This document shows positions 6,975 through 9,029 of a stretch of DNA of 43,729 nt, in pieces. The translations under genes were made by a program, and so were the position numbers. Source of the stretch: a virus (lineage: Duplodnaviria; Heunggongvirae; Uroviricota; Caudoviricetes); IMG/VR virus record IMGVR_UViG_2711768013_000010. One strand, 5' to 3'. The notes beneath the pieces are model-generated. The model saw only the letters and a list, made by a program, of their open reading frames with translations. It made no database searches and was not told where the DNA came from. Positions within the stretch are counted from its first letter, which is position 1. The number at the start of each line of letters is the position of its first letter.

Positions 6975-9029
6975 TTACGCGTTATTCACTTCCACCACGA
7001 TACTGTCAATCAGTACCGGGTAAGTCGCATTTTTAGTGATATCGGTCACGCGCAACTTGTCTGCCGTAAACGTGCCGACCGGAGACTGCGACAGCATGAA
7101 TGGTGTCCCGTCCTTACCATCAATGACCGGCGTCACCTCAATACTGTTGTTACCGGCAAAACGGAAGCCCAGCGTATGCCATTCGTTATTAAATGCGCCG
7201 AATGACCCCAGCTTCGTGTTCTGCGCCGTGTTTCCTTTGTGATACATCACGTTAAGGTCTGTGGCATCGCTCTGTACGTAGAACGATGCCAGCAGGTTAT
7301 GACCGGCATTTCCTTCCAGAGTAACCCCTTGCGGCAGGGCAGAAACCGGCCAGTACAGCGCCAGTGCGTACTGATTAGCCGTAAGCGCGCCATCGAGTTT
7401 AAAACGACAACTGACAAGACCACCTTTACCCAGCAGGTCCGCACCATTACCAGCATCATGCTCAAGGTACCAGGGGGCTCTTCCTGTTTCCTTGGTCAGT
7501 TTCATTGCCTTACCCCCGCTGGCTCCGGCATCATCCACGATTTGAGCCTTGCCACCTCCGGCAGCCCAACCCTGTGGTGTCAACCGTCCTTCAGACTCAG
7601 ATGCCCGGTAAGCAAATAGCGTACTCATCGTCGTGGTGTCTGCGGGTGGCGTGGACGGTTTTGATGGTGTATCAGGTGACGGCTTCTCATCCGGTGGTGT
7701 CACGGTCTGCCCACGCATCAGTTCAGCCGTGCGCCCTGCATGGAGCATAATAGCTGAGGCCAGACGGTCTGAAATGACGCCCCTGCGTGCCCATGAGCTG
7801 AAATGGCTGTCACGCTGTGTCGAAACAAAACTGCCCTGGGTTCGGGATGCTGCACCGTAATACCCGACAGCCACAATATCCGGGTCTTCCGCCGGAGCAT
7901 TCGTTGGCGTGCTCTGTCCATTCTCATCCGTCAGGAACGGTACAAAGAAAATTTTCTGTGCTTCCTTGCCTTTGTAGCCACCGTATACTGCCTCATATTT
8001 ATCGGTGCCAGCGTTTTTCCAGTAATACGTGGTATCACCGCAAATCCACGGCACCGTGGTGGCATTTCCACTCACGCACTGCGCAGCAAGCGGAGCCAGG
8101 TCAGTTCTGAACTGCTGAACCATGGCCGTGAATAAACTATTATGCTGCTGGCTTCCTGAGGCAAGGTCTGCCTCTCCCTGCATCCAGACCACAGCCAGAA
8201 GTTTGTTTTTCGGGTTTTTCGCCAGCGCGACTTTGGTGCGGCTTACCAGGTCCTGATACAGAGGTTTACCGGCCCCCCAGCGTGAAGAATCAGCGGAAGC
8301 ACCGCTGGCCTCACTGAATGAGCCGTCGGCTCCAGTGGTGAATGCTGACCCGCCACGACAACAGGGCACCAGAAGTATCCCGGCATTCTGTGGGATATAG
8401 GGAAGCAGTTTTTTGGCAATATGCAACCCCTGACCGACAGTCCCGTACTGGCCTTTTGCCAGATCAGCTTTCGGGTGGTTTATCCCGCTCATATCCTGAA
8501 CATCATGCAGGCAGTGGTCTGCCGGAATGATGTCGTTGTATGTACACGACGTACCGTTGGGCGTTACCGTACTGCGGCGTGCCAGTTGCTTAATGCGTGG
8601 GTCCGGGCGGTCAAACGAATCCGGTAACGGCAGCCCCTCGCCGTAGGCCATGCCATTTGACTGACCCGCGAGAATGACAACAAAGTAATATTCCGGCTCT
8701 GAACTGCTGCCATTCGTGCTACCGGAAGGCCCGGCGTTATCCGGTGCATTCCAGTCGGAGGGCGTGAGCGTTCCGGCCACGTCAGATGTGATTGGAATGA
8801 TGCCAGTCACGCCTGAACTGGTGATTTCTGCACTGGGATTACCGGATACCGGCATTACCCATAATGGCTCTTTCGTGCTGAAGCGGATCACGCAGTCTGC
8901 GAAGGTGATCCCCCCTTTATTACCCGAAGGGCGGAAAGGGCTTTCAATAAATGCCACCGTGCCACCGGCAACCTTGACTGAAAACTCTCCGGGCATGGCG
9001 GAGAGCATTTTCCACTTGGAGTCTGACAT
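6975..9029 (-). CDS. NanS-p-like SGNH-hydrolase / sialate O-acetylesterase-family protein (prophage-encoded)
   Basis: 684-aa ORF with the GQSNG(M) catalytic block typical of DUF303/NanS-type SGNH esterases, preceded by an N-terminal ~120-aa domain and followed by a long Ser/Thr/Pro-rich linker and C-terminal domain, the architecture of prophage NanS-p esterases. Confidence 0.7.
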   Translation of the reverse strand: MSDSKWKMLSAMPGEFSVKVAGGTVAFIESPFRPSGNKGGITFADCVIRFSTKEPLWVMPVSGNPSAEITSSGVTGIIPITSDVAGTLTPSDWNAPDNAGPSGSTNGSSSEPEYYFVVILAGQSNGMAYGEGLPLPDSFDRPDPRIKQLARRSTVTPNGTSCTYNDIIPADHCLHDVQDMSGINHPKADLAKGQYGTVGQGLHIAKKLLPYIPQNAGILLVPCCRGGSAFTTGADGSFSEASGASADSSRWGAGKPLYQDLVSRTKVALAKNPKNKLLAVVWMQGEADLASGSQQHNSLFTAMVQQFRTDLAPLAAQCVSGNATTVPWICGDTTYYWKNAGTDKYEAVYGGYKGKEAQKIFFVPFLTDENGQSTPTNAPAEDPDIVAVGYYGAASRTQGSFVSTQRDSHFSSWARRGVISDRLASAIMLHAGRTAELMRGQTVTPPDEKPSPDTPSKPSTPPADTTTMSTLFAYRASESEGRLTPQGWAAGGGKAQIVDDAGASGGKAMKLTKETGRAPWYLEHDAGNGADLLGKGGLVSCRFKLDGALTANQYALALYWPVSALPQGVTLEGNAGHNLLASFYVQSDATDLNVMYHKGNTAQNTKLGSFGAFNNEWHTLGFRFAGNNSIEVTPVIDGKDGTPFMLSQSPVGTFTADKLRVTDITKNATYPVLIDSIVVEVNNA

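Follow-up and report, generated by a model that had tools for sequence, protein, structure and literature searches.

Why does a transposable Mu-like prophage carry, between its DNA invertase gene and its DNA modification genes, an esterase of a kind familiar from lambdoid phages, and how far is it the same protein? The locus lies in a stretch of 43,729 nucleotides from a tailed virus of the Caudoviricetes (IMG/VR record IMGVR_UViG_2711768013_000010; the whole stretch is hereafter called the window), in which a sequence-only reading had singled out an open reading frame (ORF) of 684 amino acids (aa) with a GQSNG motif, located between the invertase gene gin and com-mom, and had likened its product to the NanS-p sialate O-acetylesterases of other prophages. 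The ORF, its motif at residues 122 to 126, and the flanking gin and com/mom genes are indeed as described there. Our analysis identifies the product as a NanS-p-class esterase that has a replaced, previously undescribed N-terminal module and is found on a non-lambdoid carrier. The explanation that we favor as a whole, and hold with good confidence, is that it would function as a sialate O-acetylesterase of the NanS/NanS-p class with three domains. The enzyme itself is ordinary, and nothing enzymatically new is expected from it; the esterase sequences, the name "sialate O-acetylesterase" (already carried by near-identical proteins at NCBI), and an O157 Mu-like phage with a homologue (LC727881/LC727895) are all public. 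Our literature search found no paper on nanS-p or sialate O-acetylesterase together with Mu-like phages and no mention of the Pfam family DUF6645, to which the C-terminal part of the protein belongs.

The gene is confirmed as real and intact. An identical coding sequence (CDS) is present in RefSeq (WP_001284083.1, labelled "DUF6645 domain-containing protein"), a comparison with PHROGs retrieved phrog_143 (E = 1.7e-296), and a pseudogene or a chance ORF is ruled out by its intact occurrence in dozens of genomes and by purifying selection. A match to the SGNH/NanS families, which had been put forward as a check, was recovered both with sequence models and with structures: the Pfam SASA model (PF03629) matches aa 117 to 312 with 51.3 bits, above its curated cutoff of 24.8; the structure of Escherichia coli NanS/YjhS (3PT5) matches aa 110 to 428 (E = 1.8e-117); and that of the C-terminal lectin-like domain of NanS-p (6YP6) matches aa 469 to 683 (E = 7e-98), with Pfam DUF6645 likewise detected in the protein (E = 7e-68). 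The SGNH motifs are GQS124NG, CCRGGS (223), WMQGE (282), and RDSH409, the first and last of which are invariant across the three alleles that we aligned. The chromosomal NanS, encoded in the nanCMS operon and consisting of one domain, aligns end to end with the catalytic domain and shares its GQSN serine and block IV histidine, whereas the esterase of the window is phage encoded and has additional domains on both sides. In the C-terminal one, Y554, Y559, Y584, and F654 align with Y510, Y515, Y540, and F611 of NanS-p, four lectin-domain aromatic residues that have been proposed to bind sugar (PMC10462455).

The sequence-only reading would have judged its proposal by whether the serine of GQSNG stands in a catalytic-triad context. 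According to a review, the catalytic Ser and His of NanS have been proven by mutagenesis, and the acidic member of the triad has not been identified (PMC10017367); our assignment of the catalytic residues of NanS rests on this review together with the alignment. Because only these two residues are proven in NanS, the triad is too strict a yardstick and is better replaced by a Ser/His dyad. That Ser124 and His409 are juxtaposed in the active site is suggested by the gap-poor alignment to 3PT5 (aa 110 to 428).

The claimed likeness to the overall architecture of NanS-p holds for the SGNH and DUF6645 lectin domains and fails at the N terminus. The NanS-p proteins (933W L0105; phi24B gp84/vb_24B_21) share with the window esterase these two domains, a downstream DUF1378 gene and also DUF826, the lack of a signal peptide, and a phage-borne location. 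They are encoded by lambdoid phages, between Q/stx and the holin gene, and begin with DUF1737, a capsid-binding domain; the esterase of the window is instead carried by a transposable Mu-like myovirus, after gin at its right end and before com, and has an unrelated β domain of about 80 aa. In an alignment with a canonical NanS-p from a Shiga toxin (Stx) phage, this segment stands exactly where DUF1737 is found. Overall identity is 63 to 68% to Stx phage NanS-p alleles and 84 to 93% to some non-Stx lambdoid alleles. The anticipated match to the DUF1737 model did not materialize: aa 1 to 115 matched no Pfam family even at E values of up to 1, and homology to DUF1737 (PF08410) was rejected by profile comparison with DUF1737 N termini (hhalign probability, 0.1%). 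When the O157 and Salmonella relatives described below were included, AlphaFold2 predicted for aa 1 to 80 a compact six-stranded β domain (predicted local distance difference test score [pLDDT], 85.9; predicted template modeling [TM] score, 0.74). A first model of aa 1 to 110, built on an alignment of 15 sequences that were 92 to 100% identical, had been discarded (pLDDT, 34). The predicted all-β fold is unlike DUF1737, which consists of a helix and three strands (bioRxiv 10.64898/2026.04.10.717836). It corresponds to a generic mini-cupin: its structure matches include the cupin-like Mif2p/CENP-C and, in BFVD, proteins of 85 to 97 aa (TM scores of 0.6 to 0.7), and no solved phage structural protein was matched.

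Relatives of this N-terminal domain (hereafter N-domain) were found only in Mu-like prophages. One, with 61% identity, belongs to the esterase encoded by a Mu-like phage that is inserted in O157 Stx phages. Another, with 30% identity, comes from an incomplete protein of Salmonella enterica (P0006) encoded downstream of gin in a further Mu-like prophage, where genes for Gp45, Gp46, baseplate J, Gp48, tail fibers, and a resolvase precede it, on a contig that reaches no further than the esterase. P0006 was the only real relative among five matches in an exhaustive HMMER search of 1.84 billion representatives, P0005 being a repeat protein and P0007 apparently spurious. No distant relatives emerged from a scan of genome contigs, and the O157 Mu-like phage was the sole match when phage records were searched by tblastn with the Salmonella N-domain. 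The Salmonella version also matches phrog_4772, a group of phage proteins of about 79 aa with unknown function (E = 6.8e-6). The N-domain is under purifying selection (proportion of nonsynonymous differences [pN], 0.23, versus a saturated synonymous value [pS] of 0.77), to a degree similar to that of the catalytic domain. Attachment or oligomerization would be its most likely role.

The identities of the individual domains point to a mosaic history. To the DUF1737-type alleles P0030, P0036, and P0065, the esterase is 84 to 93% identical in the SGNH domain, up to 100% in linker 2, and 91 to 93% in the lectin domain, with an unrelated N-domain, whereas the corresponding values against the O157 Mu-like allele are 69, 45, and 74%, with 61% in the N-domain. 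P0036 is encoded in a standard lambdoid late region (locus L041: Q, an N6 methylase, NanS-p, DUF1378, holin, lysozyme, and Rz), and DNA homology to this region begins at about codon 111 of the esterase gene and stops inside the DUF1378 gene. Among 34 IMG/VR loci, the N-domain is of two types only (97 to 100% or 60 to 62% identity to that of the window), and the identity of the enzyme body ranges from 52 to 100%. These per-domain identities and the limits of the shared DNA show that the enzyme body and its downstream neighbor have been exchanged with lambdoid prophages, with the N-domain staying with the Mu-like backbone.

The carrier is a transposable Mu-like element: Pfam recognizes MuA, MuB, GemA, Gp48, Com, and Mom, a tape measure gene is present, the ends are marked by a TGTC duplication, and MuA is 82% identical to that of the Yersinia Muvirus vB_YpM_5, its closest cultured relative. 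The right end shows the order known from Mu, D108, SfMu, and vB_YpM_5 (S/U-type tail fiber genes, gin, com, and mom) and the same GATC-rich mom regulatory element. The statement that Mu has no gene between gin and com is correct, as 94 bp containing the mom promoter (Pmom) is all that separates them; in vB_YpM_5 the distance between the invertase gene and com is 82 bp. SfMu probably also is without the module, because its gin-mom region was obtained as a 1.5-kb amplicon, too short to accommodate it. In D108, mom is as far from the genome end as in Mu (the gin-com spacing itself was not inspected). In the window, gin and com are about 3.4 kb apart, and the interval holds not a lone cargo gene but an accessory module of four ORFs (the esterase, DUF1378, DUF826, and one ORF on the opposite strand). 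The description of the esterase as an insertion into the Mu layout is therefore apt relative to Mu and vB_YpM_5, both of which lack it, but it is not a one-off event: the module is conserved in a Mu-like lineage of E. coli and Shigella. The GATC motif, which in Mu and vB_YpM_5 immediately adjoins the stop codon of gin, here lies just upstream of com. From the position of this element (5717 to 5684), it follows that the cassette sits between gin and Pmom and hence is not driven by Pmom. The coordinates of all of these features are given in Table 1.

Table 1. Features of the window (positions in the window; + is the strand as given).
Feature	Positions	Strand	Basis or remarks
Mu-like prophage, complete, 38.5 kb	4621..43116	-	4-bp TGTC duplication inside ISEc8; blastn of ISEc8 against the window; MuA, MuB, GemA, Gp48
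mom	4749..5486	-	Pfam Mom, E = 1.6e-77; 78% identical to Mu Mom
com	5440..5640	-	Pfam Zn_ribbon_Com; RefSeq annotation
GATC cluster homologous to the Dam/OxyR-controlled Pmom region	5684..5717	-	Matches the vB_YpM_5 gin-com spacer (82%)
86-aa ORF on the opposite strand	5930..6190	+	RefSeq WP_000571916.1; between DUF826 and the Pmom region
DUF826 gene	6358..6612	-	Pfam DUF826, E = 6.4e-16; position conserved
DUF1378 small membrane protein gene	6648..6830	-	Pfam DUF1378, E = 1.2e-31; co-transferred with the esterase gene
Block sharing DNA with lambdoid late region L041	6697..8699	-	blastn, 87% over 2008 bp
Esterase CDS, 684 aa	6975..9029	-	ATG start; stop codon at 6975-6977; ORF list
C-terminal lectin-like jelly-roll domain (DUF6645), aa 469-684	6978..7625	-	6YP6 match; Pfam DUF6645
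Linker 2, aa 431-468, Pro/Thr/Ser-rich	7626..7739	-	Identity to the P0030, P0036, and P0065 linkers reaches 100%
SGNH/SASA catalytic domain, aa 111-430	7740..8699	-	3PT5 match; motif positions
Linker 1, aa 81-110, Ser/Gly/Pro-rich	8700..8789	-	47% identical to the O157 allele; low confidence in the first AlphaFold2 model
N-domain, aa 1-80, predicted all-β mini-cupin-like fold	8790..9029	-	Found in Mu-like prophage esterases
Inverted repeat CTGTTT-N7-AAACAG	9042..9060	-	Just upstream of the esterase ATG; overlaps a putative Shine-Dalgarno AGG
gin-type serine invertase	9115..~9684	-	Pfam Resolvase and HTH_7; phrog_125; 5' end in a run of Ns

All of the E. coli and Shigella relatives examined carry the module with the same gene order, and gin-esterase-DUF1378-DUF826-com is found in the O157 Mu-like phage and in the 34 IMG/VR loci as far as the contigs reach. 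The esterase-DUF1378 order is the same in lambdoid late regions and in 30 or more Mu-like loci. In 5,426 complete E. coli genomes, no direct junction of a window-type gin to com/mom was found; DNA for the window-type N-domain is present in 32 of these genomes and the O157-type N-domain in 205, O157:H7 and O111:H8 strains among them, so that about 4% carry the esterase module of a Mu-like prophage. The O157 Mu-like phage is among the closest parallels: it has the same cassette and N-domain family, and most of its structural proteins are 90 to 99% identical to those of the window prophage, whereas from the tail fiber through DUF826 identity is only 59 to 78%, which places the esterase in a variable right-end block. 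The two esterases are 66 to 68% identical overall (N-domain, 59 to 61%), the body of the O157 one belonging to a different nanS-p lineage, and the O157 record has a Dcm-type C5 methyltransferase in place of mom. On this basis, we propose that a module of the lambdoid late region type was fixed between gin and Pmom in one enterobacterial Mu-like lineage and that its enzyme body has been exchanged repeatedly by recombination with lambdoid nanS-p alleles present in the same hosts.

How the protein might work can be proposed from its close homology to characterized NanS and NanS-p proteins. The SGNH domain, with Ser124 (GQSNG) as the nucleophile and His409 (RDSH) as the base, would take the 9-O-acetyl group off 5-N-acetyl-9-O-acetylneuraminic acid (Neu5,9Ac2), free or on mucin glycans, while the C-terminal jelly-roll domain would hold the glycan; the first 80 or so residues would form a domain specific to the Mu-like lineage at the position of DUF1737. 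As noted in the sequence-only reading, there is no obvious signal peptide: no such segment was found, since within the first 50 residues the 12-residue Kyte-Doolittle mean peaks at 1.44, and this maximum falls on a predicted β strand. Lysis of the cell by the phage or attachment to particles would thus probably be the enzyme's only routes to its substrate. Some observations weigh against this explanation. Block IV reads RDSH, not the RSSH/RASH of NanS and NanS-p (PMC10462455), Asp407 being a minor deviation; a promoter and terminator scan of the 85-bp gin-esterase spacer predicted neither; and Pmom lies downstream of the cassette.

Two rival explanations concern the beneficiary of the enzyme, which may be either the lysogen or the phage. 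In the former case, that of a classical lysogenic conversion gene, as envisaged in the sequence-only reading, the esterase would be expressed in the lysogen, by read-through from a constitutive gin promoter or from a weak promoter of its own, and would supply N-acetylneuraminic acid (Neu5Ac) from Neu5,9Ac2 to the carrier population, with the N-domain serving only folding or oligomerization. We regard this as possible but somewhat short of an even bet. According to reviews (PMC8319020, PMC8065619), NanS-p alleles of enterohemorrhagic E. coli (EHEC) support growth on Neu5,9Ac2 and deacetylate mucin sialic acids; the gene follows gin in the same orientation at a distance of 85 bp, with no predicted terminator between; and cupin-like domains are often dimerization modules, as in the Mif2p/CENP-C matches. 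However, without a signal peptide, a cytoplasmic enzyme of an intact lysogen cannot reach an extracellular or periplasmic substrate, and the requirement of NanS for growth on Neu5,9Ac2 is indirect evidence that the transporter NanT does not accept this compound (PMC10017367), so that release by lysis would still be needed; the spacer upstream of the gene also yielded no promoter. The alternative that the N-domain displays the enzyme on the virion has become an equally live one with the finding that phi24B gp84, a NanS-p, is a virion protein whose DUF1737 binds capsid hexons and whose enzyme part is later cleaved off (bioRxiv 10.64898/2026.04.10.717836). By analogy, the N-domain would anchor the esterase to the Mu-like particle, at capsid hexons or at a tail or baseplate component, and the phage would be the main beneficiary, in binding or crossing O-acetylated sialomucin, rather than the nutrition of the lysogen. 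The DUF1737 anchor of this precedent is absent here, and the N-domain occupies exactly its position and is followed by a flexible linker, remains with the Mu-like backbone during body exchange, is under purifying selection, and, like DUF1737, has stand-alone relatives among small phage proteins (phrog_4772 and the BFVD proteins). Against this stand its generic fold, matched by no solved phage structural protein, and its divergence: in two prophages with nearly the same capsid (90.5%), portal (97%), and baseplate (96 to 98%) proteins, the N-domains are only 59 to 61% identical, and thus the domain does not covary with an obvious partner; it tracks neither these proteins nor the tail fiber chaperone. 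Passive retention of the N-domain also is expected, since recombination with lambdoid alleles is confined to shared sequence, and P2-like phages, with a different virion, have an esterase with a DUF1737-like N terminus, which shows that the type of N-domain is not simply set by that of the virion. We consider virion display a reasonable hypothesis but, on present evidence, an unlikely one, and the same tentative standing applies to the more specific idea that the mini-cupin domain might be a Mu-like-specific virion anchor functionally equivalent to DUF1737.

An improbable third reading looks to the bacterial surface. Phage tail-associated SGNH esterases that act on O antigen are known, for example, in phage G7C, and the esterase gene is part of the only hypervariable block of the prophage, which extends from the tail fiber to DUF826 (59 to 78% identity between two prophages that share 90 to 99% elsewhere). 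The esterase could accordingly belong to a host range module with the tail fiber, its chaperone, and gin and deacetylate a surface polysaccharide, such as an O-acetylated O antigen or a polysialic acid capsule, in adsorption or superinfection exclusion. Yet the catalytic and lectin domains are 84 to 93% identical to those of lambdoid NanS-p and retain the lectin site aromatics, which argues for the same sialoglycan substrate; chaperone and N-domain types are uncoupled, as loci L029 and L036 combine a window-like chaperone (90 to 91%) with an O157-type N-domain; and in lambdoid and P2-like phages the esterase genes adjoin lysis genes, not tail genes.

A contribution of NanS-p esterases to the fitness of EHEC in the mucus layer has been discussed, and studies count their alleles per strain from lambdoid prophages. 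The Mu-like prophages provide an extra allele, many times in O157:H7 and O111:H8 strains, that a DUF1737-based search would miss. Given the recent finding of DUF1737 as a capsid anchor, the swap of the N-domain on a near-identical enzyme constitutes a natural experiment on whether such enzymes are destined for transport on phage particles and is a useful handle on the role of N-terminal domains in phage esterases. If the anchor idea were true, unrelated phages would be seen to display the same exchangeable "payload" of sialate esterase plus lectin via lineage-specific anchors, NanS-p-type enzymes would be mucus interaction devices of phages first and nutrition genes of lysogens second, and small proteins of the phrog_4772 type would be an unrecognized family of decoration or anchor proteins.

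Among the minor features of the cassette, the inverted repeat ahead of the esterase gene is kept in the O157 lineage despite differences throughout the remaining spacer; its hairpins were not significant relative to shuffled sequences (z scores of -1.7 and -0.8), and its interpretation as a LexA box was rejected on inspection, since the spacing is CTGT-N11/N10-ACAG and not N8. The 86-aa plus-strand ORF is present in window-type cassettes only and had no Pfam or PHROG match; weak promoter-like sites lie at 5876 to 5905 and 5934 to 5962. The 5' end of gin is hidden by a run of 96 Ns (9682 to 9777), as the adjacent gix crossover site probably is, and a 235-aa "ORF" (9115 to 9822) in the program-made list is an artifact of reading through this mask. 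No gin was detected in loci L011, L012, L016, L019, L025, L026, and L027, where the esterase gene starts about 300 bp past the tail fiber assembly gene.

Other observations concern the wider prophage family. In loci L002 (8420 to 9472), L024, L031, and L036, com is kept at 98% identity and is followed, in place of mom, by a gene for a C5 cytosine methyltransferase of the Dcm type (E = 2e-42 to Pfam DNA_methylase); this would be a swap of the DNA modification enzyme under the same Com/Pmom control region. Relative to the Mu-like prophage of L046, which is otherwise 90 to 99% identical, the sheath protein (19645 to 21147) is only 70.6% and the repressor (42325 to 42870) only 42% identical, and these are further points of mosaic replacement. 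In L001 (NZ_CP103972.1, strain DLI.5a), an identical right end occurs in a degraded prophage, whose gin carries a frameshift and in which a truncated tail gene is fused directly to early-late genes; its genes for the esterase, DUF1378, and DUF826, as well as com and mom, are intact, and a second copy is present elsewhere in the genome. The P2-like phages (Peduoviridae) with the NanS-like esterase and DUF1737-like N terminus are L005 (ON470599.1) and L044 (PV468777.1), in which the gene lies at the genome end, directly past lysis genes for holin, endolysin, and DUF2570; the PV468777 record marks it only as a misc_feature.

The prophage itself splits an IS66 family insertion sequence (IS), ISEc8, remnants of which remain at 4476 to 4620 and 43117 to 43622. 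As the IS adjoins a lambdoid tail fiber gene (2846 to 4018), the prophage lies within an IS that is apparently within another prophage. Mu classically makes a 5-bp target duplication; the O157 Mu-like phage record, like the window, has a duplication of 4 bp. On the other side of gin, a 60-aa plus-strand ORF (9798 to 9980) resembles the C terminus of the tail fiber protein (10585 to 11475) and is followed by a perfect GC-rich hairpin (9989 to 10008); together they look like a much reduced G-segment alternative without the second chaperone gene.

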